A DNA stretch of 64,000 bases. Origin: a plasmid. The stretch lies in sequence record NZ_CP096760.1; one strand, written 5' to 3'. Positions 3,585 through 62,043 of this stretch are shown piece after piece (position 1 is the stretch's first letter; every line of letters starts with the position of its first letter). Both the position numbers and the translations under genes were made by a program. The notes below the pieces were generated by a model. It saw only the letters and a program-made list of their open reading frames with translations, did no database searches and was not told the origin of the DNA.

Positions 3585-3630
3585 ATTATTAGTAAGCGCT
3601 TACTATAATTGCATGAGTAAGCGCTTATGA
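3585..3630 (+). promoter_or_regulatory. palindromic promoter/operator motif ATTATTAGTAAGCGCTTACTATAAT plus downstream half-site GAGTAAGCGCTTATGA
   Basis: Perfect TATAAT at 3604-3609. Palindrome TAGTAAGCGCTTACTA. 36 nt upstream of ORF 3646. Confidence 0.55.
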
Positions 3631-3645
3631 TCTTTCGAGGTTCAC

Positions 3646-4026
3646 ATGAGCAAAGATTTTTCTAGTTTAGAGGGGATGGCGAGAGCTACGAAGGAAGCAA
3701 TGCAGGGCATAAACTGGAACAAGGTTGCTGAACATGCTCGCCGAATTAATACCGAAATACAGCGTGAACAATTCAAAGACTCATCGCGCGAAGATATTTT
3801 GCTAACTATCAGAAAAGCCGCAGAGAAAGCGAGGATAGAAGCAGAGATCAACAAGGTGGCTGACGCAATGAAGAAGCGTGTAATCAATAAGTTTTATGCA
3901 AATGAATACACTGATCACTCAGACATTGCGAAAAAACCACAAGCAAAGCAAGACACGAATTTAGAACCAAAAGAAGAGAAATCTTCTAAACCAAAAACCC
4001 CACTAAACGGCATCGTTGAGTGGTAA
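3646..4026 (+). CDS. hypothetical protein
   Basis: ORF directly downstream of promoter motif. Lys/Glu-rich. Confidence 0.5.
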   Translation: MSKDFSSLEGMARATKEAMQGINWNKVAEHARRINTEIQREQFKDSSREDILLTIRKAAEKARIEAEINKVADAMKKRVINKFYANEYTDHSDIAKKPQAKQDTNLEPKEEKSSKPKTPLNGIVEW

Positions 4027-4047
4027 TTCACTAACTAAGGAAACGAT

Positions 4048-6441: not shown

Positions 6442-6466
6442 AATATTAGTAAGCGCTTACTATAAT
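6442..6466 (+). promoter_or_regulatory. palindromic promoter/operator motif AATATTAGTAAGCGCTTACTATAAT
   Basis: TATAAT at 6461-6466. Immediately followed by perfect hairpin TAGGGATGAA-AAG-TTCATCCCTA (6469-6491) and a T-tract. Confidence 0.55.
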
Positions 6467-6499
6467 TATAGGGATGAAAAGTTCATCCCTATTTTATTT

Positions 6500-10276: not shown

Positions 10277-10316
10277 TATTATTAGTAAGCACTTACTTTA
10301 TTATTGTGCTTATAAT
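10277..10316 (+). promoter_or_regulatory. palindromic motif variant ATATTATTAGTAAGCACTTACTTTATT with downstream TATAAT (10311-10316)
   Basis: Same core TTAGTAAGCACTTACT. Followed by GC hairpin GCCACCTTCGGGTGGC+TTT (10343-10366), terminator-like. Confidence 0.45.
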
Positions 10317-10794: not shown

Positions 10795-10819
10795 ATTATT
10801 AGTAATAGCTTACTATAAT
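10795..10819 (+). promoter_or_regulatory. palindromic promoter motif variant ATTATTAGTAATAGCTTACTATAAT
   Basis: TATAAT at 10814-10819. Followed by AT-loop hairpin TTTCAGG...CCTGAAA (10822-10851). About 95 nt upstream of ORF 10914. Confidence 0.5.
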
Positions 10820-10913: not shown

Positions 10914-11462
10914 GTGTTAGCTATGATTCCATATATTCTTGGAGTCGATACTGAAACGACAGGGCTAGAAGTAGATAATGGCGACAAGATTATTGAAATC
11001 GCTCTCATTAAATATGACTTGGACGGCGCAAAGCTAGAGGAATTCGTACAGCGAATTGATCCTGAACGAAACATTGATCCAAAAGCTCAAGCGGTGCATG
11101 GCATTTCCTATTCAGACCTTATCGGTTGTCCAAAATTTGTAGATATAGCAGAAGAAGTTGCCTCAATCGTAAATCACGCCTCTTTGTTAGTGGCTCATAA
11201 CTTTGCATTTGATGGCCCTTTTATCGCAACTGAACTGAAACGTGCAGGCATGACGCCTAAGAAAGTTTCTTCTTTCTGCACGATGGAATATGGCCGTTGG
11301 GCAACGTTTGATGGCAAATACCCAAAGTTAGCAGATTTGTGTTTTTCGTTAGGCGTTGAATATGACGCATTAGCAGCACACGCTGCATCGTATGACGTAG
11401 ACGTGATGATGCAGTGCTTCTTTAAGGCAAGAGAGCGAGGTTTCTTTCAGGTGGAAGTATGA
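10914..11462 (+). CDS. DnaQ-like 3'-5' exonuclease (DEDDh family)
   Basis: Exo I motif LGVDTETTGL. Later HNFAFDGPF and YDVD (Exo II/III-like). Confidence 0.75.
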   Translation: MLAMIPYILGVDTETTGLEVDNGDKIIEIALIKYDLDGAKLEEFVQRIDPERNIDPKAQAVHGISYSDLIGCPKFVDIAEEVASIVNHASLLVAHNFAFDGPFIATELKRAGMTPKKVSSFCTMEYGRWATFDGKYPKLADLCFSLGVEYDALAAHAASYDVDVMMQCFFKARERGFFQVEV

Positions 11463-13546: not shown

Positions 13547-13573
13547 ATAATAAGTAAGCACTTATTTATAATT
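13547..13573 (+). promoter_or_regulatory. palindromic promoter motif variant AATAATAAGTAAGCACTTATTTATAAT
   Basis: TATAAT at 13568-13573, 15 nt before ATG 13589. Lies inside the 5' extension of track ORF 13538. Confidence 0.55.
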
Positions 13574-15729: not shown

Positions 15730-15754
15730 TATATATAAGCGCTTACTTATAAAT
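15730..15754 (+). promoter_or_regulatory. palindromic motif variant TATATATAAGCGCTTACTTATAAAT
   Basis: Same AAGCGCTTACT core with TATAAA -10-like; upstream of IS insertion. Confidence 0.45.
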
Positions 15755-15798: not shown

Positions 15799-15824
15799 TA
15801 TTATTAGTTATCGCTTACTATATA
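15799..15824 (+). promoter_or_regulatory. palindromic motif variant ATTATTAGTTATCGCTTACTATATAT
   Basis: 38 bp upstream of IS5-family left end. Likely promoter orphaned by insertion. Confidence 0.45.
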
Positions 15825-15861
15825 TTTCCAGATAATTACATTTACTATTCACTCAACACTG

Positions 15862-16901
15862 GCTTTGTTGCACAAACCTAGCCTATAAGGTTTATTCAGT
15901 CCTATATTTCAAAATGAATAAACCTACTCCTAAAACTTATCGTACAACCAACTGGTCTTCCTATAATCGCGCTCTCATTAATCGGGGTAACATTTCCATT
16001 TGGTTTGATCCAAACACTCAGTGGTATGCACAACCACAAGACAAGCAAGGTCGAAATCAAACTTACTCCGATAAGGCTATTCAATGCTGTTTAATGATCA
16101 AATCTTTATTTAGACTCTCTTTACGCATGGTCACAGGTTTTGTTCAAAGTCTGATTAAACTTTGTGGATTAAATTGGACCGCACCAGATTACAGTACGCT
16201 TTGTCGAAGACAAAAACATATTAATATTGCGATTAGCTATCAAAAAAGTAGTGATGGGCTACATCTACTCGTCGACTCAACTGGCTTAAAGTTTCTAGGT
16301 GAAGGCGAGTGGAAACGTAAGAAACATGAACCTGAATATCGTTGCCAATGGCGTAAGCTTCATATTGGCATCGATGCTGAAACCTTGCAAATACGTGCAG
16401 TACAGCTTACTATAAATAATGTGAGCGATTCGCAAGTACTCGGTGATTTACTTGATCAAATCCCGTTGAATGAGCAGATTGATTCGGTCTATACCGATGG
16501 TGCTTATGACACGAAGCACTGCAGACAAGTCATTCTAGATCGAGATGCACATGCGGTCATTCCGCCAAGAAAAAATGCAAAACCATGGAAAGATCAGAAA
16601 TTGAGATCTTTAGAGCGGAATGAGTTACTGAAAACAGTTAAACGTTTAGGAAGAACGCTTTGGAAAAAATGGGCAGGCTATCATCGTCGAAGTTTAGTTG
16701 AAACCAAGATGCATTGCATCAAACTATTGGGGGATAAACTCAGTGCGAGAAACTTTCAGAGCCAAGTGAATGAGATTCATGCTCGTGTGGCAGTATTAAA
16801 TAAATTTACAGAATTAGGTCGTCCTCATACCCAAGTTGTCACTTGAATTCTGTTCAAATGAGCAGAGTGTTGTCTTTTAAATCTTTGTGCAACAAAGCCG
16901 C
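15862..16901 (+). mobile_element. IS5-family insertion sequence (intact copy), about 1040 bp with 16-21-bp terminal inverted repeats GGCTTTGTTGCACAAA
   Basis: IRL GGCTTTGTTGCACAAACCTA at 15862. IRR reverse-complement GGCTTTGTTGCACAAAGATTT ending 16901. Single DDE transposase ORF. Confidence 0.8.
15914..16846 (+). CDS. IS5-family (IS903/IS427-like) DDE transposase
   Basis: N-terminus YRTTNWSSYNRALINRGNISIWFD typical of IS5 family. DDE region DSTGLKF...YTDGAYD...E. Confidence 0.85.
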   Translation: MNKPTPKTYRTTNWSSYNRALINRGNISIWFDPNTQWYAQPQDKQGRNQTYSDKAIQCCLMIKSLFRLSLRMVTGFVQSLIKLCGLNWTAPDYSTLCRRQKHINIAISYQKSSDGLHLLVDSTGLKFLGEGEWKRKKHEPEYRCQWRKLHIGIDAETLQIRAVQLTINNVSDSQVLGDLLDQIPLNEQIDSVYTDGAYDTKHCRQVILDRDAHAVIPPRKNAKPWKDQKLRSLERNELLKTVKRLGRTLWKKWAGYHRRSLVETKMHCIKLLGDKLSARNFQSQVNEIHARVAVLNKFTELGRPHTQVVT

Positions 16902-17244
16902 TAACGACTAAAGTTTCACCGGCTTTAGGCTGACCAATGTCTAACAACCCCATATAAGCAGTAAATCCTGGCATTCCCAAAATATCCAATGCCCAAGATG
17001 GATGTTCAGGTTGCATACCTAAGCTTTGACATACAGTCCCATTAGAAATTGCGTAGCCCTGCCAGCCATTTCCTGAAAGAACCCACTCGCCTTCTTTGAA
17101 TTTTGGGTTTTTAGAGGCCACTACTTGACTGACTCTTCCACCGACCATCACTTCGCCAATTTCAACCGGTGCTGCATATGAGGGAGCATCACTCATGCGA
17201 CCACACATATAAGGATCGAGTGACAAGTAAATGGTCTTTAACAA
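16902..17244 (-). pseudogene. N-terminal fragment of NADPH-dependent curcumin/quinone reductase (MDR family, CurA/YncB-like) truncated by IS5 insertion
   Basis: LSLDPYMCGRM and following MDR N-domain. ORF 16825..17244 reads from the gene into the IS right end, so the C-terminal ~220 aa are missing. Confidence 0.6.
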
Positions 17245-17503
17245 TATCTCGCCTTATTTAAGTTCATTGAGTTCAACTTGCTCAATACGAAAATCGCTGT
17301 GTTTTGGCTCACCGAGTGGCCGTTTAGCTAAAACGATGCGTTGGTTAATAACTGTTTCCACTCGCATAACTCCATGTTTTGTATAAAAGTATTTCTATTG
17401 ATAATTGAGACTGTTGATTAAAACGTCTTTACATCAATTGTAGATGAGTTATAATAAAAAAAATACGACTGGTCTATTTTTTACAATAGAGTAAATAATT
17501 AAT

Positions 17504-18112
17504 ATGAAGCCTAATCCTATTAAAAAGTCTGAAGCGAAGCGCTTACACATTCTTAACACTAGTTCAGACCTGATTTTGCATAAAGGTTTTACCGGTGTAG
17601 GATTACAGGAAATTTTACAGAACTGTGAGATCCCCAAAGGCTCGTTTTATCATTACTTCCAATCCAAGGAAGCTTTCGGATGTGAATTGGTACAGCATTA
17701 TGTAGACAATTACCAAGTCCGTTTAAATGATGTATGGCGTAGTGATAAATCCCCTTATCAAAAGCTAATTGAGTATTTTAATTTATGGATAGAAGATCCT
17801 GTAACACAGTGTGGTTGGGCGGATAGCTGTTTAATTGTGAAACTTGCCGCAGAAGTTGCCGATCTATCTGAAGATATGCGCTCGATTATGTCCGCTGGCG
17901 TCGATGATGTAATCGAACGTATTGCTGGTTTAATTGATTTGGGAAAACAGGATCAGTCTATCCAGGCAGATACTGAGGCCTCGACGTTGGCACAAGTACT
18001 TTACCAAATGTGGTTAGGTGCAGCATTACTGAGTAAATTGCAAAAAGATAAAACACCATTACATCAAGCTCTGAGAGCAACTAAATTTCTATTAAAAAGT
18101 GAAGATTCATAA
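17504..18112 (+). CDS. TetR/AcrR-family transcriptional regulator
   Basis: N-terminal HTH LHKGFTGVGLQEILQNCEIPKGSFYHYFQSKEA. Confidence 0.8.
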   Translation: MKPNPIKKSEAKRLHILNTSSDLILHKGFTGVGLQEILQNCEIPKGSFYHYFQSKEAFGCELVQHYVDNYQVRLNDVWRSDKSPYQKLIEYFNLWIEDPVTQCGWADSCLIVKLAAEVADLSEDMRSIMSAGVDDVIERIAGLIDLGKQDQSIQADTEASTLAQVLYQMWLGAALLSKLQKDKTPLHQALRATKFLLKSEDS

Positions 18113-18216
18113 AAATTAGATTAAATATCAATTACATAATTAATGACAGCAGCCCAATGATTACTTATTAATGTGTTGCTATTAGATCAATTTACAATCC
18201 ATGAGTATAGCGCACA

Positions 18217-18447
18217 ATGAATTCTCCTTCTAAAGCCCTCATGTCTCGTATTTTAGTCGGATATTTAGGCTTATATCCCACACTATTACTGGTACTTACT
18301 TTATTAAAGCCAATTACTCAGCATCAAAGTTTCCCGATGATGGTGTTGATTGAAGTCATAGTATTAGTGCCAGTAACGCAACTGATTTCTTTCCCACTGG
18401 CAGGTTGGCTCATTACACAGCTAAAAAATTTTAAGAATTTGTTTTAA
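18217..18447 (+). CDS. small hydrophobic membrane protein
   Basis: Two predicted TM helices in 76 aa. Confidence 0.4.
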   Translation: MNSPSKALMSRILVGYLGLYPTLLLVLTLLKPITQHQSFPMMVLIEVIVLVPVTQLISFPLAGWLITQLKNFKNLF

Positions 18448-18530
18448 GAAGAATTTATGCTGGCAACAGCAATCCTAAGTCCTTATTTTGCCAACCACAA
18501 CGGTTGGCAAAATAACTCACTTAGTCAATA

Positions 18531-19658
18531 CTAATCTGCGTAAGCTGGATAATCAATATAGCCTTTTTCTGTCCCACCATACATAGTGCTTGCATCTACT
18601 GGATTCAATGGCCAGCCATTGGCGATGCGATCGGGTAAATCTGGATTCGCAATAAATGGGCGTCCAAATGCAATTAAATCGGCCAGTCCTGCCTCTAAAA
18701 TTCGAGTCCCTCTTTCTGCCGTATATCGACCTGCATAAATAATCCGACCACTGAAAGTGTCTCTGACATCTCTACGAAAATCATGAGGAAGTTCTGGTGC
18801 ATTATCCCAATCAGCTTCTGCAATCGATAAATAGGCAATCCCAACTTCTTCAAGTATTTTTATGGCTTCAATATAAGTCACATGTGGATCATCTTCAACC
18901 AACCCTATGTAAACACGATCTTCCTCTGTACTTTCAAATAGCGGGGCAAAACGCACTCCTAAACGATCTGCACCAACCACCTCAGCAACTGCCTCTACTA
19001 CTTCACGTAAAAAACGCAAACGATTGTTTAGTGATCCACCATATTCATCTTCACGGTGGTTACTATGTGCAGAGATAAATTGATTCACCAAATAACCATT
19101 TGCACAATGAATTTCAACTCCATCAAAACCAGCAGCCAAGGCATTGCGTGCTGCTTGAGCATAGAGTTGCACTAATTCTTTAACTTCTGCATTGCTTAAA
19201 GCACGTGGCATTGAAGGATCAGCCAAGGTCCCAGCATTAGGCCCGGTCTCAATAAACACTTTAACATTACTATCAGCCCTAATAGCCGAGGGTGCGACCG
19301 GTGATGCATGATTAGGTTGCAAAGATGTATGTGAAACACGCCCAACATGCCAAAGTTGTGCAAAAATAATGCCTCCTTTAGCATGCACTGCTTCAGTCAC
19401 TTTACGCCATCCAGCAATCTGTTCAGGGCTGTAAATACCGGGAGTCCAAGCATAGCCTTGACCACGTGGCTCGATTTGCGTACCTTCGGTGACCATAAAT
19501 CCTGCCCCGGCACGCTGTTGATAATAGGTTGCCATCAGTTCATTTGGAATATTCCCTGGCTGAGTACTGCGCGACCGCGTTAATGGTGGCAATACAATAC
19601 GGTTTCGCAAAACATAAGGGCCTAAGCTTAAGTTTTGAAAAAGTATGCTGTCTTTCAT
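18531..19658 (-). CDS. Old Yellow Enzyme family NADH:flavin oxidoreductase / alkene (N-ethylmaleimide) reductase
   Basis: OYE motifs PPLTRSRS, HCANGYLVNQF, GVRFAPL. 375 aa. Confidence 0.85.
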   Translation of the reverse strand: MKDSILFQNLSLGPYVLRNRIVLPPLTRSRSTQPGNIPNELMATYYQQRAGAGFMVTEGTQIEPRGQGYAWTPGIYSPEQIAGWRKVTEAVHAKGGIIFAQLWHVGRVSHTSLQPNHASPVAPSAIRADSNVKVFIETGPNAGTLADPSMPRALSNAEVKELVQLYAQAARNALAAGFDGVEIHCANGYLVNQFISAHSNHREDEYGGSLNNRLRFLREVVEAVAEVVGADRLGVRFAPLFESTEEDRVYIGLVEDDPHVTYIEAIKILEEVGIAYLSIAEADWDNAPELPHDFRRDVRDTFSGRIIYAGRYTAERGTRILEAGLADLIAFGRPFIANPDLPDRIANGWPLNPVDASTMYGGTEKGYIDYPAYAD

Positions 19659-19858
19659 TTCATTGTATCCAAGTAATCATGACTTAATTGATCTAAATTA
19701 AAAAATACCCTTCCTTCCTGTATATAGAAAAATAAAGGAAAGAAAGCTATTAACTCAGACCCTCCACCATTAAGTGAGGGTTATTTTGCTTATTGCACCC
19801 GTTGCTCAGAGTCAGAAGTTATTCACTGCTAAGCACCACAACAGACGCTAGCTACTCT

Positions 19859-20536
19859 TTATTTCAACAATTGAAGTAATGCTGTAGCAGTTGCAGCAGA
19901 AGAGGCTGGATTTTGTCCAGTAACCAGCAAGCCATCTACTTGAACATGTACTTGCCAATCATCTACTTTAGAATAATGACCACCATTTTCTTTAAGCATG
20001 TCTTCGACTAAAAATGGTACAATTTCAGTCAAGCCTACAGCAGCCTCCTCAGTATTGCTAAAACCAGTGACTAATTTACCGCTGACTAAAGGCGCTCCAT
20101 TACTCGCTTTCACATGACGAAGAACACCTGGGGCATGACACACTGCTGCAACAGGTTTGCCAGACTGAATCGCCTGTTCAATCAGAGAAATTGAAATCGG
20201 ATCTTCTGCTAAATCCCACAATGGACCATGCCCGCCTGGATAAAACACCGCATCATAATCAGCTACAGAAATTTCGCTAAGTTTATGCGTCTGTGCCAAT
20301 GCTTGCATTGCAGTTGGATCAGCTTCAAAACGATGAGTGGCTTCAGTTTGCGCATCGGCTAAATTACTTTTAGGATCTAGTGGTGGCTGCCCACCTTGAG
20401 GCGACGCCAGCGTAACTTCAGCACCAGAGTCAATAAAGATGTAATACGGTGCAGCAAGTTCTTCTAGCCAGAAACCTGTTTTCTTACCAGTATTGCCAAG
20501 TTGAACATGTGAGGTTAAAACGACTAAAATTTTCAT
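19859..20536 (-). CDS. DJ-1/PfpI-family (type 1 glutamine amidotransferase-like) protein
   Basis: AAVCHAPGVL nucleophile-elbow Cys. MKILVV start with GGAG SD at 20536; track ORF extends to 20572. Confidence 0.75.
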   Translation of the reverse strand: MKILVVLTSHVQLGNTGKKTGFWLEELAAPYYIFIDSGAEVTLASPQGGQPPLDPKSNLADAQTEATHRFEADPTAMQALAQTHKLSEISVADYDAVFYPGGHGPLWDLAEDPISISLIEQAIQSGKPVAAVCHAPGVLRHVKASNGAPLVSGKLVTGFSNTEEAAVGLTEIVPFLVEDMLKENGGHYSKVDDWQVHVQVDGLLVTGQNPASSAATATALLQLLK

Positions 20537-20620
20537 GTTATTTCTCCGATAATTTTCATGATTGAGGAGCATTGTTGCATGATCACTTGCTGTGTGGCGT
20601 GAGCATGCCAGATAGCTTAT

Positions 20621-21778
20621 TTAGATGCTCGTCGCAAGAATTTGGCGACTGATCTCTAATGAAACATTTTTGTGTTCGCCTAGCCGTGTCAGATTGTGTG
20701 ATTTAAGTTGCGTAATGATGATCTCAATATCTGTCTCCCCCAGTCCATAATCGCTAAGACGAGTCGGCAATCCAAGTTGCTCAAAGAAGGCTCGAGTACG
20801 AGCAATAGCCGTATCAATACGTTGTTCTTCATCACCTTCGACAATCTGCCAGACACGAGCTGCATACTGTAGTAATTTTTCTCGCTTCTCTTGACGACGC
20901 ACTTGTAGATTGGCCGGCAACACAATGGCCAAGGTACGAGCATGATCAATACCATGTAAAGCCGTGAGCTCATGTCCAATCAAATGGGTTGACCAATCTT
21001 GTGGTACACCAGCTCCAATCAGCCCATTCAGTGCCATGCTAGCAGACCACATCAAATTCGCACGCGTGTCATAATCTGCTGAATCTTCCAAGATTTTCGG
21101 TCCAATCTCAATCAGAGTTTGCAATAGACCTTCGGCAAAACGATCTTGTACTTGTGCATTCACAGGGTAAGTTAAGTACTGTTCAATGACATGAACAAAT
21201 GCATCCACCACGCCATTAGCCAACTGGCGCGTCGGCAAGCTAAAGCTTTTATTCGGATCTAGTACGGAAAATTGCGGAAAAACATAGGGACTGCTAAATG
21301 ACAATTTGGCTTGGGTCGATTTTCTGGTTACTACACCACCGCTATTCATTTCTGAACCAGTTGCCGGAAGGGTGAGTACACTCGCAAAAGGCAAAGCTTG
21401 AGTAATTTTAGTACCATGGGTTTCTAAAATCTCCCATGTATCCCCTGTATAATTGACTGCTGCTGCAATAAATTTAGTACCATCAATTACCGATCCACCA
21501 CCGACAGCCATCAAGAAATCAATCTTTTGTTCTCGAATCAGCTCTACAGCTTTCATGAGGGTTTCATAACTCGGATTCGGCTCAATTCCGCCAAATTCAT
21601 GAATTTCTCTTGCACCTAATGCTTCACGCACTTCAGCTAAAGTACCATTCTTACGTGCACTTTCACCACCAAATAACATTAACACTTTTGCTTCTGTAGG
21701 CACATAGTCATTGATTTCAGCTATTGTATCGCCACCAAAAATAATGCGGGTCGGATTATAAAAGTTAAAATTCAGCAT
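20621..21778 (-). CDS. iron-containing (group III) alcohol dehydrogenase, YqhD/butanol-dehydrogenase-like
   Basis: GGGSVIDGTK NAD(P)-binding motif and His-rich metal site; 385 aa. Confidence 0.85.
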   Translation of the reverse strand: MLNFNFYNPTRIIFGGDTIAEINDYVPTEAKVLMLFGGESARKNGTLAEVREALGAREIHEFGGIEPNPSYETLMKAVELIREQKIDFLMAVGGGSVIDGTKFIAAAVNYTGDTWEILETHGTKITQALPFASVLTLPATGSEMNSGGVVTRKSTQAKLSFSSPYVFPQFSVLDPNKSFSLPTRQLANGVVDAFVHVIEQYLTYPVNAQVQDRFAEGLLQTLIEIGPKILEDSADYDTRANLMWSASMALNGLIGAGVPQDWSTHLIGHELTALHGIDHARTLAIVLPANLQVRRQEKREKLLQYAARVWQIVEGDEEQRIDTAIARTRAFFEQLGLPTRLSDYGLGETDIEIIITQLKSHNLTRLGEHKNVSLEISRQILATSI

Positions 21779-22374
21779 ATTTTTATCCTAGGATGATCAG
21801 CTAATTGATTTGAAAAGCCACCGTTATTCATCAAATAAACTTTAAAAAATTGGACAATACTGTGGCTTTTGCCTACACCATGTGCTAACTATACATAAAA
21901 ATAGACCAGTCGTCTATTTTTTTAAAAAAATTATTTCAGCTTGCCAACTTGAGTGATGCTTAAACAAATTCAGGCTTGTTCTATACCACTTTTATTATTG
22001 ATGTATTTTCACGAGCGATTGTTGGATGGAAGATATCAACACGTATGACTATTGACATGGTCGTGAACGCATTGGCTGAAACAGTGAATGGCTCATAGAA
22101 AATAGCAATGATTAAATATTTTAAAAGCAGATTGGCAAGGTTTAGCAGATGTACAAATGCAGCGCTAAATTAGATAGATTGGTTCAATATAAGGCATGTG
22201 GATTCATTCGTTTATTTACCCTGTTTTGGATATTGACCCATGTAAACGATGAGATTAAGCCAATAAATAAAGTAGCCCAACTTGAATAAAAAGCCTCTGA
22301 CAAACATCATAGGGTTGAAGTGCTGCCTTACATTCAAAATTTCAGACAGCACCCTCATACATTTAAGCATAGGT

Positions 22375-22677
22375 TTAAGCTGGTAGTTTACTCGCCAAAA
22401 CATCTACTTTTTCAATAGATGGTGGCTCTGAAAATAGCTCTTCGGCCTGAGCCATCAACGCAGCTGCAACCTTGCCAGATAAATGCGCTTGGCGACCCGC
22501 CTCATCAGGAAATGCATCAAAAATACCAAATGTTGTAGGACCAAGACGAAGGCCAAACCACGCAACTGTCGCAGGTTCTTCCATTACAATAGGTAAACCG
22601 GCTTTAAGAAAAGCTTCCACTTCGTCTTCTTTACCCGGTTTAGCTTCAAGACGGACATATAAAGCTGTTTTAAGCAT
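22375..22677 (-). CDS. ABM-domain (antibiotic biosynthesis monooxygenase-like) protein, putative quinol monooxygenase
   Basis: 100-aa ferredoxin-like ABM pattern (LKTALYVRLEAKPGKEDEVEAFLK...). Confidence 0.65.
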   Translation of the reverse strand: MLKTALYVRLEAKPGKEDEVEAFLKAGLPIVMEEPATVAWFGLRLGPTTFGIFDAFPDEAGRQAHLSGKVAAALMAQAEELFSEPPSIEKVDVLASKLPA

Positions 22678-24068: not shown

Positions 24069-25202
<1,134 letters not shown>

Positions 25203-44676: not shown

Positions 44677-44990
44677 GTCTAACCCCAAAACAGATCGAAT
44701 TACTGACAAAGATTCGCGATAAAAATCCAGACGGTTCTTTGCTCTCAATCGAACAGCTTCATGACGCCGTGAGTTACACCTGCACCCGACAAGCCATTAC
44801 ATGCAGCCTAAATTTTCTGATTAAAAGAGGCCTGATTGAGAAGAGCGGGCAAAACGTGGTGAGAAACGGGCGTAGATTTACGGTCGTCAGCATCAAGCCA
44901 TTGGGCGAGGAAATACTAAACGCCTATGTACCTTCGCTACGGCAGGTACTTGTAGAAAATGAGGATGAGGAAATTGAAAAAATCTTCTAA
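44667..44990 (+). CDS. winged-helix DNA-binding protein (MarR/ArsR-like)
   Basis: CTRQAITCSLNFLIKRGLIEKSG recognition-helix/wing pattern; weak. Confidence 0.4.
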   Translation: MQLGLTPKQIELLTKIRDKNPDGSLLSIEQLHDAVSYTCTRQAITCSLNFLIKRGLIEKSGQNVVRNGRRFTVVSIKPLGEEILNAYVPSLRQVLVENEDEEIEKIF

Positions 44991-45453: not shown

Positions 45454-45499
45454 TTCCGACATTTGGGTAATTTGGGTTTTCCGCAACTCTTCGAATAAT

Positions 45500-45525
45500 A
45501 TATTATTAATAAGTGCTTACTTTAT
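45500..45525 (+). promoter_or_regulatory. palindromic motif variant TATTATTAATAAGTGCTTACTTTATT embedded in about 110-bp imperfect palindrome (45461-45570)
   Basis: Flanking arms ACATTTGGGTAATTTGGGTTTTCCGCAACTCTTCGAATA / TATTCGGAAAACTGCGGAACTCCCAAATGT are inverted repeats. Confidence 0.45.
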
Positions 45526-45564
45526 TGTATTATTAATATATTCGGAAAACTGCGGAACTCCCAA

Positions 45565-45971: not shown

Positions 45972-45996
45972 ATTATTAATAAGCGCTTATTATTTA
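45972..45996 (+). promoter_or_regulatory. palindromic motif variant AATTATTAATAAGCGCTTATTATTT
   Basis: 5 nt after stop of 45565..45966. Followed by GC hairpin+T8 at about 46068-46107. Confidence 0.4.
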
Positions 45997-46118: not shown

Positions 46119-46724
46119 ATGACTGAAGAAACAGCCAACAAACGCAGATACCCTTCAGCAAGTGCTTGGGCAGAAGCAGAGGCGTTATGGGCTTCTGGTG
46201 ATGTGACCCTAGAGGACTTAGCCAAGAAAGTCGGGGTAAGCGCAACTTCCGTTTCCCTTCACATGAAGAAGCGGAAAATCACGAAAGGGGAGAAGGCCAA
46301 GGAACATTCCGAGCGTATCTCCAAACAGGTCGCCGAAGATATTTTGTCAGAAGGGACCGTACATAGCCAAAGAATTAAGGAAACCAAAGAAGAACATTAC
46401 AAGATGGCGACGGGTCTAGCTCGCCTGACTTGGAATGAAATTGTCACTGCCAAGGCAAAGGGCGGTGCTTATGCGGCGATTCAACAAAATTTAAAAGCAC
46501 TAGAAATCGCTTCGAATGTTTTGGCAAAGATCCGCCAAGAACGGTACGCCGTTTTAGGTTTGGATAAGCCTGATGCTGTAGATGCTACTCAACTTCCGGA
46601 ATTGGTAATTGAAGAATTGACGGCCGATCAGGTTCAACAATTGAAAGAGCGTGATTTCAACAATGGTAATTACGACTTTGAAGATGAGGACATGTTAGAG
46701 CCATCAAATGATTCAGGGGAATGA
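46119..46724 (+). CDS. terminase small subunit (putative)
   Basis: HTH-like LEDLAKKVGVSATSVSLHMKKRK; position immediately upstream of TerL. Confidence 0.55.
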   Translation: MTEETANKRRYPSASAWAEAEALWASGDVTLEDLAKKVGVSATSVSLHMKKRKITKGEKAKEHSERISKQVAEDILSEGTVHSQRIKETKEEHYKMATGLARLTWNEIVTAKAKGGAYAAIQQNLKALEIASNVLAKIRQERYAVLGLDKPDAVDATQLPELVIEELTADQVQQLKERDFNNGNYDFEDEDMLEPSNDSGE

Positions 46725-47982: not shown

Positions 47983-48010
47983 TATTATTAGTAAGCGCTT
48001 ACTAATATTT
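47983..48010 (+). promoter_or_regulatory. palindromic motif ATATTATTAGTAAGCGCTTACTAATATT (26-bp perfect palindrome)
   Basis: Between TerL stop and portal ATG 48024. Confidence 0.55.
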
Positions 48011-50630: not shown

Positions 50631-50656
50631 ATTATTAGTAAGCGCTTATTGATAAT
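50631..50656 (+). promoter_or_regulatory. palindromic motif ATTATTAGTAAGCGCTTATTGATAAT
   Basis: 15 nt after scaffold stop. Confidence 0.45.
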
Positions 50657-50751
50657 CAAATAGGCGTTTGCTAATATTTGACCAGTAACCATCGGCGCTA
50701 GAGAGAGTTAGTTCGTCCGAAGAAAGCTAATCAGTAAATGGAGCATTATTA

Positions 50752-51655: not shown

Positions 51656-51713
51656 TATAAATATTAGTTAGCACTTATTGATAAAAAAGAGACTAGAAAT
51701 AGTCTCTTTTTTA
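51656..51713 (+). terminator. motif copy (CTATAAATATTAGTTAGCACTTATTGATAA) fused to strong rho-independent terminator AAGAGACTAGAAATAGTCTCTT+TTTTATT
   Basis: Hairpin at 51687-51708 with T-tract; directly after capsid stop. Confidence 0.7.
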
Positions 51714-51792
51714 TTGAAAGCATTATTTATATTGATTGTTTAAATATTAGTTATAACTTATTATTTAACTAAAATGGCAGGTTGGATTAAGC

Positions 51793-55022: not shown

Positions 55023-55048
55023 AATTATTAGTAAGCGCTTATTAATAG
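55023..55048 (+). promoter_or_regulatory. palindromic motif ATTATTAGTAAGCGCTTATTAATAGT
   Basis: 15 nt before ATG 55063 of major tail gene. Confidence 0.5.
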
Positions 55049-55616: not shown

Positions 55617-55680
55617 CAATATATTAGTAAGCACTTACTAATATATTTATGCAGCCTCATACCCGTGAGGCTGCTTTATA
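55617..55680 (+). terminator. motif copy (ATATTAGTAAGCACTTACTAATAT) followed by terminator GCAGCCTCATACCCGTGAGGCTGC+TTTATA
   Basis: Hairpin 55651-55674. Confidence 0.7.
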
Positions 55681-59400: not shown

Positions 59401-62000
59401 AGAATGAAACCCCGTTAAGATCATCCTTCCAACGGTTAGTGCAAGGCTTACGGGATGACCTGATCGCAGGGTTAAAAGGTCTACATACCATCTGGAACAA
59501 TGCTTTAATCCAGTTAGGCATTGATACAGAAAACGCACGCCGTAATCTCCGTGATTTGGCAAACTACAAAGGCGAAGTTTTAAAAATCCCAGTTAAAGGT
59601 GTAACGGCTGAAGAGGGCGGTGGCTTTACCTCAACACCTGCAACCCGTGAACTTGGCAAGAAAATCACCAAATTGCTTGAGAAGCGGGAGCTTGTACAAA
59701 AGGGGAAAGGCTTCTTAACGAATGCGCTTGACGGTGGCAAACAGCAATTAAAAGAAATTGACGATATGCTTGCCGGGTACAGACGCGGCATGAAATTAGG
59801 CGGGCTGGTTTATATCGAGAAAGGCCCATACGCTGGACAAGTCGTTCTTAAAAAGGACATTGAAAAGAACGCCAAGCTTCTCAAAAATAAGCAGAAGCAA
59901 GCTGCTGCCGCTAAAACTTCGTCTGCAACCTCTACAGGAAGTGTATTACCTACACCGTCAAATCTTGCCGATTATTCTGCACCGGCAATTGGTTCTGGTG
60001 GAGGCTCAACGCCTAAAGAGAAAACTGGACGAGGTTACGATCGCCAATGGAACAACCTATATCGTGCTGATGTTGAGAAAGCCTTGTTGGGCGCTCAAGA
60101 CCGCGAGACTGATATTAGTGAAATTCTCGGTCAGCCTGTTGACTACCTCAAGAGAGCGAAGAACGACTTTATCGAGCGTTGGATGAGCGGAAAATGGGAT
60201 GACAATAATGACCCACGCTCACGTCCATTCACGAAGGGTACATACAATCCTGATACAGGTTGGACTAAGGATCAAATTGACTGGGACGGCATGTACAAAG
60301 GTCAACATGTCAATGAGTTCCTTAACGCCCAAATGAAGAAGTTGATGGCCGATGACTACAAGGCATCAATTCAGTTTGCCGCTGAAAGATCGGCTTCAAC
60401 AGATGAGGACTTTAAGAACGTCCTTGATCAATTTGTCGAGAATGACACCAAGAAATCTGATGCCTTAATGGCTTTAGAACGTCAGTTCGCCCGTTATGAA
60501 GTGCGTAATCCAATGGCACTTCAAGCAGGCGGTTATAACGACTTCAAGGACTTTGCGCTTAACCATCAGGTGGCCAAGGACACTTTATCCAAAGCTTATG
60601 AGTCTAAAAACATCAATAAACAACTCTCCATTGACCTAATGGATAGTGAAGTTGATCGACGTCAATCTTCTGCCGACTATGCGTATGATGAAGTTGCCAA
60701 GGAGATCAATGAGCAGCGTAAGGCGCTAGAAAAGCGGATTCAGATTACCAAAACCATGATGGAAAACGATGAGGCTGCCAAGAAGGAATATGCAGAACTC
60801 ATCAAAGCCAAAGAGCTGGCTGAAGAGGAATTCACCAAGCGCTTAATGCTTGAAAATGAAAAGCGTGTTCGCGCCTCTGAATCCGCAACACAGCAGATGC
60901 TACGCCAATACCGTGATCTGAAAGTCGGTATTGAAAGCATTAACCAGAAGTGGACAGAAAGTGCTATCGACTCAGTTGCCGACCTCATTACAGGACGGAT
61001 GAGTTTCAAGGACTTCGACTGGCGTCAAATTGGATCTGATATTTTTGCCGATTATGCAAAAGTCTTTGTAAAAGATTCAGCAAGTAAGCTAATTACCAAC
61101 GTAATGGGTAACCAATCCATTTTTGATCTTGGTAAATCCTTATTGAGCGGTAAAGCTGCTGGCGGAATGGGCTGGGCATCAGACTTGCTAAATAGATGGC
61201 GCGGTTTAGGTCCTTATGCTCCGGCTGTTGACCCAAATACAGGCGAATCTACAAGTGCTGCGGTCAATACTGAAATTACTGACACTATACCGCTATTTGA
61301 CAAACTACGCGCTACCTTAAATCCACTGACTCAAGGATTAAGTTCATTATGGGAAAATGTCAGCAGCGCATCACAGGGTCTTTGGACTTTTGCGTCAGAT
61401 GCTATCAGCAAGGCAATTAATGCTTTGTTCCAATGGGCAACAAGCCTGTTAGCATCAAGCACAGCTTCCAGCGGCTCATCGGGCGGTAACTGGTTAGGTA
61501 CATTGTTCCAAGTCGGAATGGCCGCTTATGGAGCTTACAGCGGTGCAGGAGCAGGTATTGGAGACATTAGTAGCGGTGCTTCATATCAAGTCGGCGGTGG
61601 CTTCAACAGCGCTGTAGGTTGGAGTGGTACATCACAGTTCGCCAAGGGTGGAATTTTTACCAACTCTATCGTGAATGAACCTACACCGTTTATGTTTGCC
61701 AAGGGTGGAAGTTTTGCAAACGGTCTGATGGGAGAAGCAGGGCCAGAAGCAATCATGCCGCTTACTCGCGATTCATCGGGCAGACTCGGTGTTTCCATGT
61801 TGGGAGCGGGTGACGCTTCAAACGACATGCAAAATCACGTTCAAATCCAAATCACCGTAAACAACGATGGAAGCTCTTCTACAAGCGCATCTGGCGGTGA
61901 TGCTCAAGAATATAAACAAATGGCGAAGCAGGTCGAAGCCATTGTCATGAGCACCTTGGACAAACAAAGCAGACCGGGAGGAAGATTATATAAGAAATAA
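56412..62000 (+). CDS. tail tape measure protein
   Basis: 1862 aa. Long coiled-coil N-terminal third. Central hydrophobic segments (IAIVTGLGAGFGALTLATSLFFG). Gly-rich C-terminus. Position after G/GT. Confidence 0.85.
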   Translation: MAGEINNTLKLDVNQFDQAIQKASDRLDKLDSNLGKTNASVESLEKILSGLGGDIRQLSSSFKTLDDNLAASLKMLSGVQKNTDSLSRSLDSVDKSASKTAKTTAQAAKSIENLADFTQAYEKKLKNLNPLLNRVSKGQQILEAHAKATGDELEKQSKRTLANNARALQAEIKNNEKLLAERREMAYKAAQIQKRAEVNLAVQQKLYNGTFFGKNKNSTSEKAVEMRANIELWRKEADAAKLVKEQIKSVIRDIEYQNGELQKGVNLLNQQIERTRALKNQQSVEQAKSRQEQKSLDTARKRQELEKRTEAWWKEALFNRERREEEAERRRIEKRRQLEQEYSNWFNRELDKRERREADARLKQRPLIRNIDEERQAQTRTADARRKLELDYTGWWTRTLNNRDQAAQRAAEQAERDAHRVRMQQLNEERKAQELLHREQMSVAKDLAAMYASIKINQGLGGAVHKNMELEQSKFRLSLWNLPKEEQERFLQKSRDLTKTEKYLTNTEAIDARLDAMAAMGGNHEKTIDATLATATRVAHILRATGNETGSNSDLVKNLYGFAESRQVMNNVDEINKSFETLLKISNISNGKIKIADVETIARNMGGMRADVSADGWLKIAALGEQFKTAGGGNGGGGGIATVGTMLKMMGLYGSGKTITNRAVTDLMGADILNEFKDGDAEKAFRENAKNIKEFTKMMKNAGFKDLKSMGEDPVKFFSSLRGQILDYMMREDNFTRFFGEGTKRWTYNQKGQMINSEGKVVDPNEQNKIERTGFTRWASGMGWSNKTVDGLTTMLDKRFIDRANEVAESAKRSAESQQALKEAQDTLKGSTDNLMASLGRLAESFAPLLPFLTGFVNGLTKAVDGIANLMNLHPAIAIVTGLGAGFGALTLATSLFFGKLSLVSRLVTTLLPALGGLGKTAQTSSGQLATATSTANNLGQAVSKMGDGTKNVVPKVSNMSTRVLGILGGMLRWAGWVGLGLLVGQMFISWLDSVNKNETPLRSSFQRLVQGLRDDLIAGLKGLHTIWNNALIQLGIDTENARRNLRDLANYKGEVLKIPVKGVTAEEGGGFTSTPATRELGKKITKLLEKRELVQKGKGFLTNALDGGKQQLKEIDDMLAGYRRGMKLGGLVYIEKGPYAGQVVLKKDIEKNAKLLKNKQKQAAAAKTSSATSTGSVLPTPSNLADYSAPAIGSGGGSTPKEKTGRGYDRQWNNLYRADVEKALLGAQDRETDISEILGQPVDYLKRAKNDFIERWMSGKWDDNNDPRSRPFTKGTYNPDTGWTKDQIDWDGMYKGQHVNEFLNAQMKKLMADDYKASIQFAAERSASTDEDFKNVLDQFVENDTKKSDALMALERQFARYEVRNPMALQAGGYNDFKDFALNHQVAKDTLSKAYESKNINKQLSIDLMDSEVDRRQSSADYAYDEVAKEINEQRKALEKRIQITKTMMENDEAAKKEYAELIKAKELAEEEFTKRLMLENEKRVRASESATQQMLRQYRDLKVGIESINQKWTESAIDSVADLITGRMSFKDFDWRQIGSDIFADYAKVFVKDSASKLITNVMGNQSIFDLGKSLLSGKAAGGMGWASDLLNRWRGLGPYAPAVDPNTGESTSAAVNTEITDTIPLFDKLRATLNPLTQGLSSLWENVSSASQGLWTFASDAISKAINALFQWATSLLASSTASSGSSGGNWLGTLFQVGMAAYGAYSGAGAGIGDISSGASYQVGGGFNSAVGWSGTSQFAKGGIFTNSIVNEPTPFMFAKGGSFANGLMGEAGPEAIMPLTRDSSGRLGVSMLGAGDASNDMQNHVQIQITVNNDGSSSTSASGGDAQEYKQMAKQVEAIVMSTLDKQSRPGGRLYKK

Positions 62001-62014
62001 TATAATTACCCCTT

Positions 62015-62043
62015 TAATATTAGTAAGCGCTTACTTATAATTA
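62015..62043 (+). promoter_or_regulatory. palindromic motif AATATTAGTAAGCGCTTACTTATAATTAG
   Basis: TATAAT at 62035-62040, between tape measure stop and gpM-like start 62073. Confidence 0.5.

Follow-up and report, generated by a model that had tools for sequence, protein, structure and literature searches.

Parallels for a repressor acting at many sites are the C1 operators of phage P1, the gp71 'stoperators' of mycobacteriophage L5 and KorA/KorB of plasmid RK2. Repressors, rather than activators, classically bind a dyad that lies over the -10 element and the spacer. The sites of ParB, Noc and KorB are palindromes of 13-16 bp, and those of Noc and KorB are dispersed. In P1, 11 late promoters consist of a -10 element and an inverted repeat of 9 bp to which Lpa binds (PMC10695390; P1 record).

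The window analysed here, 64,000 nucleotides of record NZ_CP096760.1, belongs to an Acinetobacter baumannii phage-plasmid of ~110 kb from the SSU5 supergroup. The original prediction spoke of an Acinetobacter phage; the element is a phage-plasmid of this supergroup and not a classical, simple phage. Whole-plasmid copy counts were made in the complete, close relative pB84_2. Further relatives checked were other Acinetobacter lineages, Salmonella phage SSU5, Yersinia pMT1 and a Methylobacterium plasmid of 68% GC. A palindrome recurring between the lytic genes of the window is most likely a DNA site for a single dimeric regulator, encoded by the element, that controls the majority of phage transcription units.

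Copies of the palindrome and their placement

The palindrome, with the consensus TTAGTAAGC(G/A)CTTACTAA, is 18-26 bp long and found at ~22 places in the window. The motif is real: a window search with TTAGTAAGCRCTTACTAA (≤3 mismatches) gave 34 strand matches at 19 places, while shuffled sequences averaged 0.05, with 2 at most. Three weaker copies, at 15732, 37299 and 51747, came from a scan with a position weight matrix (PWM). Every copy predicted earlier was recovered, including the degenerate second copy at 3615-3631; the earlier coordinates mark the start of an extended motif of 25-26 bp, 3-8 nt 5' of the 18-bp core. The sites are as follows, with the strand where one is assigned.

3589-3606, plus: palindrome TTAGTAAGCGCTTACTAT with TATAAT at 3604-3609, upstream of the ORF at 3646-4026; the pAR56 ortholog (14300) keeps TATACT at the same register
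3615-3631: degenerate second copy GAGTAAGCGCTTATGAT
6446-6463, plus: palindrome at the nrdA/nrdB junction; TATAAT spans 6461-6466 and a hairpin with a T-run (~6468-6495, -14.1 kcal/mol) begins 1-2 nt later; pAR56 has the matching order palindrome, terminator, nrdB
10282-10299, plus: palindrome TTAGTAAGCACTTACTTT, with a terminator-like hairpin ~45 nt downstream
10799-10816, plus: palindrome and TATAAT ahead of the 3'-5' exonuclease gene (10914-11462), with a 16-bp hairpin next after the TATAAT; site 103251 in pB84_2
13551-13568, plus: palindrome TAAGTAAGCACTTATTTA, then TATAAT, with an ATG 20 nt on; site 106003 in pB84_2
15732-15749, plus: weaker palindrome (PWM 21 bits), first of two copies that closely precede the IS5 insertion
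15804-15821, plus: palindrome TTAGTTATCGCTTACTAT, second of the pair and last copy before the cargo
34918-34935, plus: variant CTAGTGAGCGCTTACTAT, first copy after the cargo
37164-37181, plus: palindrome TTAGTAAGCACTTACTAA, then TAATAT
37299-37316: weak copy ATAGTAAGTGATTACTAT
40656-40673: palindrome in the 78-bp divergent helicase/ParB1 region
45506-45523: palindrome forming the apex of an inverted repeat (45470-45560, ~90 bp, conserved) that precedes the p133-TerS-TerL genes
45976-45993, plus: palindrome TTAATAAGCGCTTATTAT, upstream of a TerS-like gene (46119-46724)
47988-48005: best copy, a perfect 22-bp palindrome at 47986-48007, between TerL (stop 9 nt before it) and the portal gene (ATG 18 nt after it)
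50635-50652, plus: palindrome upstream of the major capsid gene
51664-51681, plus: palindrome 9 nt past the capsid stop, with an intrinsic terminator (51683-51712) directly after
51747-51764, plus: degenerate copy past the post-capsid terminator, 28 nt before the next gene (51793)
55028-55045, plus: palindrome with the ATG of the major tail gene (55063) 17 nt on and the Shine-Dalgarno sequence GGAG in the interval
55624-55641, plus: palindrome, then TAATAT; a 10-bp GC-rich hairpin begins exactly at the predicted transcription start; site 30752 in pB84_2
62020-62037: palindrome between the tape-measure gene and a gpM-like tail gene (62073), with a plus-strand TATAAT after it
63183-63200, plus: degenerate copy within a C40 peptidase tail gene

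Placement is intergenic and specific to the element. The comparison with coding sequence bears out the intergenic location, as 27 of the ~31 copies in pB84_2 are intergenic against 11% of the backbone (binomial p = 2.5e-22). A copy is present in 23 of the 54 intergenic gaps of at least 40 nt. None of the ~31 pB84_2 copies lies in IS or cargo DNA, and the cargo of the window is free of copies as predicted, with none found within 15822-34917 (the IS5/cargo stretch) by pattern search or PWM scan. In 596 Gb of species-representative genomes the exact 17-mer has 55 hits, all single and at about chance level by our own arithmetic, consistent with an element-specific motif. It is common to early-type and late genes, as had been proposed. 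Two earlier measurements need correction: in the 'perfect 26-bp palindrome' (47984-48009) the perfect part spans 22 bp and 24/26 positions match, and the distance from the palindrome to the next start codon is 12-126 nt, not 15-60 nt. Searches of the accessible literature turned up no account of this motif.

Copies begin 3-25 nt past stop codons, some lie just before Shine-Dalgarno sequences and several adjoin other hairpins. This would suit a hairpin acting in the transcript, between cistrons, to direct processing, stability or (as an operator) translation, a reading that we consider extremely improbable. RNA-type covariation is absent: one-sided changes number 208 and compensatory ones 16, the latter at chance frequency (8 vs 9.2 and 8 vs 7.9, within genome). 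G-U-type changes are not preferred over A-C-type changes, the stems are identical among copies, and palindromy runs through the would-be loop or centre. At the helicase promoter, the conserved -10 puts the start downstream of the dyad, which is thus not in that mRNA.

Conservation of the half-site across relatives

Lineage-specific versions of the half-site AAGT(A/C)A(G/C) occupy the same junctions in syntenic relatives. In the comparison with other genomes, suggested earlier, L040 has the palindrome of the window, and the other lineages listed here carry variants.

Window and L040: TTAGTAAGCGCTTACTAA
L041 and L050: AAGTAAGTACTTACTT
L042, L051 and pAR56: AAGTCAG..CTGACTT
L052, L053 and Methylobacterium: AAGTCAC..GTGACTT
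SSU5 and pMT1: ATA(A/G)GTAAGTACTTAC(T/C)TAT

The TerL/portal junction holds a lineage-specific palindrome in L040-L043, SSU5, pMT1 and Methylobacterium. The order capsid, palindrome, terminator is kept in all Acinetobacter lineages, SSU5, pMT1 and Methylobacterium. The half-site pattern marks a deeply conserved, slowly co-evolving protein-DNA pair, and the dyad co-evolving across lineages implies the single dimeric, element-encoded regulator originally proposed. Since the half-site is kept from Alpha- to Gammaproteobacteria, a conserved factor is needed. We found no support for reading the palindrome as a host-factor site.

Differing half-site alleles occur within one host species, like immunity specificities, which speaks against an activator. 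A global repressor or roadblock operator is the strongest alternative, possible but less probable than an activator. A dimer made in the plasmid-prophage state would occlude the -10/-35 elements of lytic promoters and stop read-through at intercistronic copies; candidates are the Cro/C1-type HTH protein (HTH_3), whose gene adjoins that of the integrase outside the window, or an autoregulated p107. It fits this explanation that co-circulating A. baumannii lineages carry different alleles, that L040 shares both the motif of the window and the HTH recognition helix, and that in pAR56 the HTH_3 gene has degenerate copies of the palindrome in front of it (106640, 106712 and 107029). However, HTH_3 is hypervariable: two A. 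baumannii lineages share 98.6% identity in their integrases but 29% in this protein. It was also not found in SSU5, while the half-site is conserved across bacterial classes. Nor are the HTH_3 columns that track motif type concentrated in its HTH. In SSU5, the CI-like gene has a separate operator family on its flanks, which means that the GTAAG family does not serve as immunity operator in that element.

Promoter geometry and expression

A -10-like hexamer had been reported on the 3' side of each copy. It is a true -10 at several junctions, but in part it is the A/T-rich outer arm of the palindrome: over all copies, the right flank scores 4.4 bits as a -10 and the mirrored left flank 4.05 (Wilcoxon p = 0.36), so that overall the right flank is no more -10-like, a point against an activator. 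The flanks do differ in form, with ATTATTAG on the left at 17/32 sites and its mirror on the right at 1/32 (counted manually). The adjoining -10 stands where its register stays fixed while the dyad changes, at the helicase and SSB promoters. The helicase-side TATAAT/TATACT is kept in L040, L041, L042, pAR56, SSU5 and pMT1 despite the differing dyad. Upstream of SSB, a site outside the window that was read in pB84_2 and relatives, TATAAT or TATACT is found in six lineages. In pAR56, palindromy is broken at six sites to give (C)TATACT.

At the helicase site (minus strand; helicase ATG at 40614, plus-strand ParB1 ATG at 40693), the palindrome fills the 18-nt spacer between TTGAAA (40681-40676) and TATAAT (40657-40652). 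This promoter has 11/12 consensus matches and is the top sigma-70-like site in 40-60 kb; being near consensus, it should not need activation. Canonical sigma-70-like sites in 40-60 kb number 19 vs 31 in shuffles, and 3/10 motif sites there score as canonical promoters. At the capsid site, the right flank provides the -35 TTGATA (50649-50654) of a conserved promoter with the extended -10 TGcTAATAT (50672-50677), which places the dyad centre near -41.

The claim of a promoter class has support at junctions where a conserved -10 abuts the dyad, but not every copy can be a promoter. In pB84_2, 5/27 intergenic copies end 12-20 nt before an ATG, and in three of them (23115, 30156 and 87393) a Shine-Dalgarno sequence occupies the gap. 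A copy this near an ATG, or one that immediately precedes a terminator, cannot be an ordinary promoter. Such non-uniform geometry (helicase spacer, capsid at ~-41, 12-20 nt from ATG, pre-terminator) counts against an activator, and the variable dyad position, together with its overlap with the -10 and spacer, suits repressor operators. Most sites, however, have no -35, leaving the target of a repressor in doubt.

Expression was compared with RNA-seq of the E. coli relative Cyrano, a different supergroup member for which the sites compared are those of SSU5 (PMC9928086, supplementary file 2). Transcript levels in Cyrano step up at genes 4, 5, 12 and 21, positions that match motif sites of SSU5. 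The helicase operon of SSU5, a close relative of Cyrano, begins at a palindrome-overlapped promoter. In Cyrano lysogens the helicase operon is expressed (46-114 vs a background of 9.8) while the conserved candidate binders are silent, which argues against a repressor. The p107 ortholog CYRAN_123 is at background in the lysogen (7.8 vs a median of 9.8) and above its neighbours under inducing conditions (PMC9928086).

Candidate binding proteins and proposed regulation

Two candidate DNA binders are encoded in the window.

44667-44990, plus: p107, a small winged-helix protein, best candidate palindrome binder
40693-41331, plus: ParB1, second candidate, with a ParB_N domain

The p107 gene, named earlier as a possible binder, is the best candidate on conservation and on its AF2 model. 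Its ortholog is found at the same place in every relative examined. The model (pLDDT 68.5, moderate confidence) predicts three helices and then a beta-hairpin wing; fold matches to MarR, PadR and RTP-like proteins are weak and not significant. Over seven lineages from Alpha- to Gammaproteobacteria only Y37, T40, Q42, S47, L51 and R66 are invariant, all in the predicted recognition helix and wing. Neither p107 nor ParB1 has a residue that follows the A/C half-site allele, and p107 does not resemble Lpa in sequence.

All through the supergroup ParB1 is conserved; its gene comes first after the 40656 copy, and the protein matches ParB and Noc structures. Its strongly conserved C-terminal beta-alpha-alpha segment (HQIMRFKV...NAGDAL) could read DNA. 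The palindromes might then be ParB1 loading or binding sites, like dispersed parS, Noc binding sites (NBS) or KorB OB sites, with a clamp-like protein on ~30 palindromes silencing, organising or marking the phage genome. We regard this as improbable: no ParB-type HTH can be recognised beyond the N-domain, Cyrano lysogens do not express the gene, and it would be left unexplained why the sites are so tightly linked to gene starts and to the conserved -10.

A phage sigma factor had also been suggested as the reader. The half-sites would then be -35-like and -10-like elements of the element's own sigma-like factor. A divergent ECF-like protein is encoded in pB84_2 and pAR56, outside the window (Sigma70_r2 E = 0.003 and TIGR02937 E = 1.4e-4, both below cut-off), and its two orthologs are 27% identical, as might be expected of a factor co-evolving with its promoters. 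There is nonetheless very little to commend this idea, as dyads are not read by a monomeric sigma factor, the half-site spacing is 10 bp and not 16-18 bp, the gene is absent from motif-bearing SSU5, and no second repeated motif was found.

We return to a homodimeric, phage-plasmid-encoded regulator that would bind the palindrome at the DNA level and mark the start of most lytic units. We infer that this factor is most likely the conserved winged-helix protein of 90-107 aa encoded at 44667-44990, and that its binding activates transcription. A class of -10-only promoters dependent on such an activator, as P1 late promoters are on Lpa, is our preferred though tentative reading, with the case for it close to evenly balanced. 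In promoter-type copies the dyad would replace the -35 and spacer (~-28 to -10, centre ~-18.5 to -19.5) and directly abut the -10 hexamer (TATAAT, TAATAT or TATACT). With no usable -35, host RNA polymerase would need the bound dimer for initiation. Copies without leader room or before terminators are probably secondary, and may be weak promoters of short-leader transcripts or simply extra binding sites. If the factor is made only after induction, lytic genes would be silent in the plasmid state and then turned on together. The P1 late promoters operate on this principle with Lpa, and provide a precedent for the proposed mechanism.

A dispersed palindrome in an SSU5-type phage-plasmid

Numerous near-identical palindromes are scattered over the window. 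A search with TTAGTAAGCRCTTACTAA, allowing up to 3 mismatches, returned 34 strand matches at 19 places, compared to a mean of 0.05 in dinucleotide-preserving shuffles. Scanning with a weight matrix derived from these sites yielded three weaker copies in addition (15732, 37299 and 51747). At that threshold, the window after base shuffling gave 0–3 matches. All coordinates listed in the original prediction were recovered, including the degenerate second copy at 3615-3631, and the motif is indeed missing from the cargo, with no copy between 15822 and 34917 (IS5 element and cargo). The palindrome at 47988, predicted to be perfect over 26 bp, is perfect over 22 bp only. The conserved unit comprises about 26 bp, ATTATTAGTAAGC followed by GCTTACTAATAAT. 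Positions 1–7 hardly vary and mirror each other across the centre, indicating a dyad rather than an asymmetric site.

At the DNA level, nothing in the phage records and phage collection searched resembles the window, except through an IS element, and 50 Acinetobacter plasmids of ~110 kb match it at 95–100%. One of these, pB84_2 (NZ_CP139838.1, 117 kb), was analysed whole. Its genes for structural proteins are of siphovirus type, and a large number of others serve replication and nucleotide metabolism. It also encodes a plasmid replication initiator, ParA, a Cro/C1-type HTH protein and a resolvase-like integrase. The element is a phage-plasmid (plasmid-prophage) of the SSU5 supergroup, to which the Salmonella phage SSU5 belongs. 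A tblastn search with the portal protein found 889 plasmids, including those of Klebsiella, E. coli, Salmonella, Yersinia pestis and Methylobacterium.

The whole of pB84_2 contains ~31 motif copies, all in the phage backbone. Consistent with the predicted phage specificity, the motif is in excess between genes and at chance level only in unrelated host genomes. The share of the backbone that lies between genes is 11%, against 27 of the 31 copies (p = 2.5e-22), and 23 of the 54 intergenic gaps of at least 40 nt contain one. In most cases the motif starts 3–25 nt after the upstream stop codon, and it ends 12–126 nt before the next start codon. The genes downstream include nrdB, exonuclease, SbcD, primase, SSB and the CobT/MoxR-like genes, so the motif is not restricted to late operons. 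In a GTDB scan of 596 Gb of species-representative genomes, the exact 17-mer has 55 single occurrences, against ~70 expected by chance according to our own arithmetic, and is thus not a host-genome motif. An exact-match scan of IMG/VR gave near-identical relatives and single chance matches only, and a scan with the SSU5-type 16-mer was uninformative. Exact-match scans being insufficient, divergent relatives were found through protein homologs.

The cargo region borders on a pair of motif copies, and has the following features in the window:
15732 and 15804: motif pair, with the IS5 element and cargo inserted directly 3' of it
15914-16846: IS5-family insertion
17000-30000: cargo, ~14 kb, with TetR, alkene reductase, alcohol dehydrogenase and formaldehyde-detoxification genes
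30109-30181 (+): tRNA gene at the edge of the cargo region (Rfam RF00005, 73 bits)
The insertion has severed the original downstream transcription unit from the motif pair.

Lineage versions and the nature of the site

Syntenic loci of diverged relatives (L040–L043, L050–L053) were gathered through portal and MoxR homologs and compared together with the complete pAR56, a plasmid of a second A. baumannii lineage, phage SSU5, the Y. pestis plasmid pMT1 and one Methylobacterium plasmid. The junctions compared lie between the helicase gene and the gene of ParB1 (a ParB_N protein), upstream of TerS, between TerL and portal, upstream of the capsid gene, after the capsid gene, and upstream of the major tail gene, SSB and CobT. 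At most of them, each lineage has its own version of the palindrome.

Versions of the palindrome by lineage
Window, L040: TTAGTAAGCGCTTACTAA
L041, L050: ATAAGTAAGTACTTACTTAT
L042, L051: AAGTCAG..(C/T)TGACTT
pAR56, ~33 copies: ATCAGTCA(G/C)TACTGACTGAT
L052, L053, Methylobacterium (68% GC): AAGTCAC..GTGACTT
SSU5 (~25 copies), pMT1: ATA(A/G)GTAAGTACTTAC(T/C)TAT

A single half-site, AAGT(A/C)A(G/C), underlies all versions. The half-site centres are ~10 bp, or one helical turn, apart, which is the spacing required by a dimer that reads two successive major grooves. The presence of the motif at the same junctions from Alpha- to Gammaproteobacteria indicates that it is ancient, strongly constrained and slowly drifting. 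Such slow drift is to be expected if about 30 sites and one protein are obliged to change together. Since different alleles of the motif occur within one host species, a host factor is excluded.

Some lineages also carry inteins or homing-endonuclease insertions in their helicase, RecA and DnaE genes (Hom_end, Intein_splicing, LAGLIDADG, Hint and NUMOD4/HNH matches), and pAR56 encodes an Hfq-like protein. The insertions are located at:
L042 216-2987
pB84_2 83597-85795
L050 19395-21269
L053 5233-8894

An inverted repeat could act as DNA or as an RNA hairpin. Among the copies of pB84_2 and the window, 123 changes are one-sided and 8 compensatory, against 9.2 expected under permutation; the pAR56 copies have 85 one-sided and 8 compensatory changes, against 7.9 expected. 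Wobble pairs are not preferred, wobble-compatible changes numbering 14 against 13 A-C changes in pB84_2 and the window and 6 against 18 in pAR56. The palindromy continues through the centre (GCGC, GTAC), for which there is no reason in an RNA loop, and at the helicase promoter the conserved -10 element puts the start downstream of the dyad. No Rfam family was found at the motif sites, the tRNA at 30109-30181 being the sole match. The lack of covariation, the palindromic centre, the position of the helicase start and the absence of an Rfam match together lead us to regard the motif as a double-stranded DNA site for a dimeric protein. A terminator reading of the palindrome was rejected, as the stems are A/U-rich and a T-run is not consistent. 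A T-rich element upstream of the dyad was also dropped, being partly explained by stop codons and coding sequence, e.g. the TerL C-terminus.

Predicted promoter architecture and candidate binding proteins

At some junctions the dyad itself differs but a -10 hexamer is conserved, in a single register that begins with the 7th base to the right of the dyad centre. The hexamers upstream of SSB are TATAAT (pB84_2, L050, L051, L053) or TATACT (pAR56, L052); those on the helicase side, on the minus strand, are TATAAT (window, L040, L041, L042, SSU5, pMT1) or TATACT (pAR56). In pAR56, six copies lose the palindromy of the outer right arm, forming (C)TATACT. A strong hexamer at +7 from the centre is present in about one third of the copies. 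Taking all copies together, the right flank does not exceed the mirrored left flank in its likeness to a -10 (p = 0.36 and 0.53).

Most sites lack a -35 element. Between 40 and 60 kb of the window, canonical -35/-10 pairs are depleted (19, versus 31 in shuffles), and 3 of the 10 motif sites there coincide with one. Canonical sigma-70 promoters (-35, -10, spacer of 16–18 nt) are found at the helicase and capsid genes and, weakly, at 45506. The helicase promoter of the window, TTGAAA-18-TATAAT, has 11 of 12 matches, with the dyad in the spacer; with a sequence so near consensus, it should not need help. At the capsid gene, the flanking TTGATA serves as the -35 of TTGATA-17-TGcTAATAT, a conserved promoter of the extended -10 type, which places the dyad near -41.

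Geometry varies further at other copies. The copy after the capsid gene has a terminator directly 3' in every lineage. Several copies are followed by a hairpin that begins 0–6 nt before the predicted start; it is possible that these are hairpins of the transcript 5' end, yet the start would then fall inside the stem at most sites. In pB84_2, 5 of the 27 intergenic copies end 12–20 nt from the ATG, and an SD sequence fills the gap at 3 of them; SSU5 sites 2040 and 57755 are likewise close to the ATG with an SD sequence in the gap. This variable geometry, and the copies that are unable to be promoters, are better accounted for by a global repressor or a roadblock acting at the palindrome. This is the main rival of the reading favoured below, and rather less likely than it; the lack of -35 elements fits poorly with such a protein. 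A dual role in activation and repression is possible.

Two further structures in the window lie close to motif copies:
45470-45560: long inverted repeat of ~90 bp upstream of the p133-TerS-TerL genes, with motif copy 45506-45523 at its apex
50649-50751: capsid promoter and leader, the leader being ~70–85 nt long with the 14-mer CTAGAGAGAGTTAG invariant in five lineages
The arms of the long repeat read TTGGG / TTCCGCA / CGAATA ... TATTCG / TGCGGAA / CCCAA. Three other lineages conserve it, and 10 of the 28 pairs show compensatory changes; possible readings are a packaging signal, a cruciform and a large terminator. In the capsid leader, a search for conserved secondary structure was negative.

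Published RNA-seq of Cyrano, a relative in E. coli, bears on expression at the motif. Expression steps up at genes 4, 5 (capsid), 12 (tail) and 21, and drops after the capsid gene and gene 16 (PMC9928086, supplement). With site positions taken from SSU5, these steps and drops coincide with motif sites and palindrome-plus-terminator sites. In Cyrano lysogens the operon of the UvsW-like helicase (CYRAN_118, CYRAN_117) is expressed at 46–114 against a background of 9.8, or 5–12x, and the ParB operon, which diverges from it, is silent (PMC9928086, supplementary file 2). In SSU5, a close relative of Cyrano, the helicase operon starts at a promoter overlapped by the palindrome, and its expression in lysogens is difficult to reconcile with a repressor or roadblock at that site.

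The conserved candidate binders are encoded in an operon that starts at the motif copy at 40656 (window coordinates):
40693-41331 (+): ParB1, ParB_N protein
44667-44990 (+): p107, predicted small winged-helix protein
We regard p107 as the stronger candidate. An AF2 single-sequence model (pLDDT 68.5) has three helices followed by a beta-hairpin wing, which predicts a winged helix. The protein has weak MarR- and PadR-like matches, and Foldseek hits of the model to PadR, MarR, RTP and TubR (E > 0.03, TM ~0.3) are suggestive only. Seven orthologs, from Acinetobacter to Methylobacterium, are 24–54% identical. Their invariant residues Y37, T40, Q42, S47, L51 and R66 map to the wing and to the recognition helix or its immediate neighbourhood, a pattern that fits a protein with a frozen DNA target. 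The Cyrano ortholog, annotated as 'DNA binding domain containing', is at background in lysogens and exceeds its neighbours under inducing conditions (PMC9928086). ParB1 has a clear ParB_N domain and a conserved C-terminal beta-alpha-alpha segment, and no ParB-type HTH is evident after ParB_N. In neither ParB1 nor p107 is any alignment column perfectly associated with the A/C allele of the half-site, a comparison of 6 lineages with little power.

HTH_3, the Cro/C1-type protein whose gene neighbours that of the integrase outside the window, corresponds in position to the repressor expressed in Cyrano lysogens. It is hypervariable: between pB84_2 and pAR56 it is 29% identical, the neighbouring integrases 98.6%. 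A word-based search returned 3 homologs only, and a profile search did not detect it in SSU5. In a comparison of 6 lineages, again with little power, 32 columns are associated with motif type, spread over the whole protein and not concentrated in the HTH. A hypervariable repressor matches poorly with a deeply conserved site, which is a further point against the repressor reading.

A divergent, ECF-like sigma protein was rejected as reader of the motif: it is lineage-restricted, its sigma-family matches are weak and below the cut-off, and such a protein is unsuited to a dyad. It gave no PDB match, and a search of SSU5 did not find it. The gene lies outside the window, after the CobT/MoxR-like genes (pB84_2 74628-75293, equivalent to L038:29628-30293), and shares 27% identity with the pAR56 counterpart.

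SSU5 contains a second dispersed palindrome, AGAAAACAANTTGTTTAA, in 21 copies (e.g. 92174, 93718, 94530). Its copies are located 9–10 nt downstream of GATAAT hexamers and flank the CI-like gene SSU5_116. This family is probably the immunity operator of the early promoters in SSU5, and its position around the CI-like gene implies that the GTAAG family described here is not. A search for repeated motifs found no second palindrome of this type in the Acinetobacter plasmids.

We tentatively favour positive control at the motif, with a confidence slightly short of even. Promoters of one class would have a -10 only; in place of the missing -35, they would rely on a factor, most likely p107, that is made during lytic growth and binds as a dimer roughly from -28 to -10. 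In a bolder version, which we hold to be rather doubtful, the palindrome and p107 would form a master switch common to the whole SSU5 supergroup. A single dimer would take the part of -35 recognition at virtually all middle and late promoters, being functionally convergent with Lpa, the late-promoter activator of P1, or a very distant relative of it, and the half-site (AAGTAAG/AAGTCAG/AAGTCAC) would define cross-talk groups among co-resident elements. If true, this would apply to hundreds of plasmids, including Y. pestis pMT1, resistance-carrying enterobacterial SSU5-like plasmids and alphaproteobacterial members.

SSU5-supergroup phage-plasmids are common in Acinetobacter, Klebsiella, E. coli, Salmonella and Yersinia, many with resistance genes, and to our knowledge almost nothing is known about the control of their lytic programme. 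One conserved cis-element at ~30 transcription-unit boundaries, together with a short list of candidates, makes this control directly testable. The motif also provides a sequence signature to recognise and type these elements, as well as predicted promoter/operator positions for annotation, and its half-site alleles offer a possible explanation for which related elements coexist with or induce one another.

Comparison with known systems

Dispersed conserved operator or promoter repeats are already known in phages, such as the C1 and Lpa sites of P1, the L5 stoperators and the phiC31 CIRs. The motif strings have no match in the searchable full-text literature, the titles and abstracts listed in searches on promoters, repressors or operators of Acinetobacter and SSU5 phage-plasmids contain nothing on the regulon, and the palindrome is not mentioned in the searched paper on an SSU5 relative. 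The regulon is apparently a new, undescribed case with unusually deep conservation, its factor being at the candidate stage.

In the P1 C1 operators and the gp71 'stoperators' of mycobacteriophage L5, one prophage regulator acts at 17 to ~30 scattered sites, largely in short intergenic spaces, and the C1 operators are visible in the P1 record. The motif resembles them in its many conserved copies between lytic genes, and a study of Cluster A immunity reportedly found that the motif there drifts slowly between related phages. Those sites, however, are asymmetric (13 and 17 bp), with orientation dependence in L5, whereas the motif has dyad symmetry. In P1 and L5 the immunity repressor binds them. 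The immunity-type HTH of the present element is not conserved along with the motif, and its conserved candidate binders are silent in the Cyrano lysogen. The CIRs (conserved inverted repeats) of the Streptomyces phage phiC31 were reportedly described by Ingham et al. in 1994 and Wilson et al. in 1995 as a highly conserved 17-bp inverted repeat with many intergenic copies. They are said to lie near phage-specific promoters and terminators and to be bound by the phage repressor. They belong to another phage group, differ in sequence and are confined to the early region, and their binder is known, while the motif has candidate binders only.

KorA and KorB of RK2/IncP plasmids are a small dimeric HTH and a ParB-family protein encoded in one autoregulated operon, with sites of 12–13 bp palindromes at 7–12 dispersed backbone promoters. 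The likeness lies in the genes for a ParB-like and a small winged-helix protein that share an operon starting at a motif copy. RK2, however, is a conjugative plasmid and not a phage, KorA and KorB are repressors with defined positions, and homology is limited to the ParB N-domain. The middle promoters of T4 are also many and dispersed, with a good -10 and a box for the phage factor MotA in place of the -35. This box is asymmetric, has its centre at -30 and is recognised by a monomer acting with AsiA; no homologs were found here.

The late promoters of P1, like the motif-bearing element a phage-plasmid, are an analogous precedent for the proposed positive control. P1 has ~11 dispersed late promoters, in which a -10 is combined with a 9-bp inverted repeat that Lpa binds in place of the -35 (PMC10695390). 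In the P1 record (L167), the '-22 boxes' AAGTTACTT and ATGTGACTT are located at 2522-2530 and 6476-6484, 4–9 nt upstream of the -10, and their letters resemble the promoter-proximal half-site of the motif, (C/G)T(T/G)ACTT. The lpa gene is directly upstream of pacA in that record; likewise, p107 is upstream of TerS/TerL. The proteins p107 (107 aa) and Lpa (150 aa) have no sequence similarity (BLASTP E = 3.4), and none of the families matched by the scanned subset of ORFs carries a late-promoter-activator annotation. The dyad of the motif is larger, 18–26 bp against 9 bp; its centre lies near -19 instead of -22, and it touches or overlaps the -10. With ~30 copies, it also precedes replication and nucleotide-metabolism genes in addition to late genes, and activation is a proposal here, unlike in P1. 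If the factor is an activator, the motif would represent a second case of late-gene control in the style of P1 Lpa, in a different phage-plasmid lineage.
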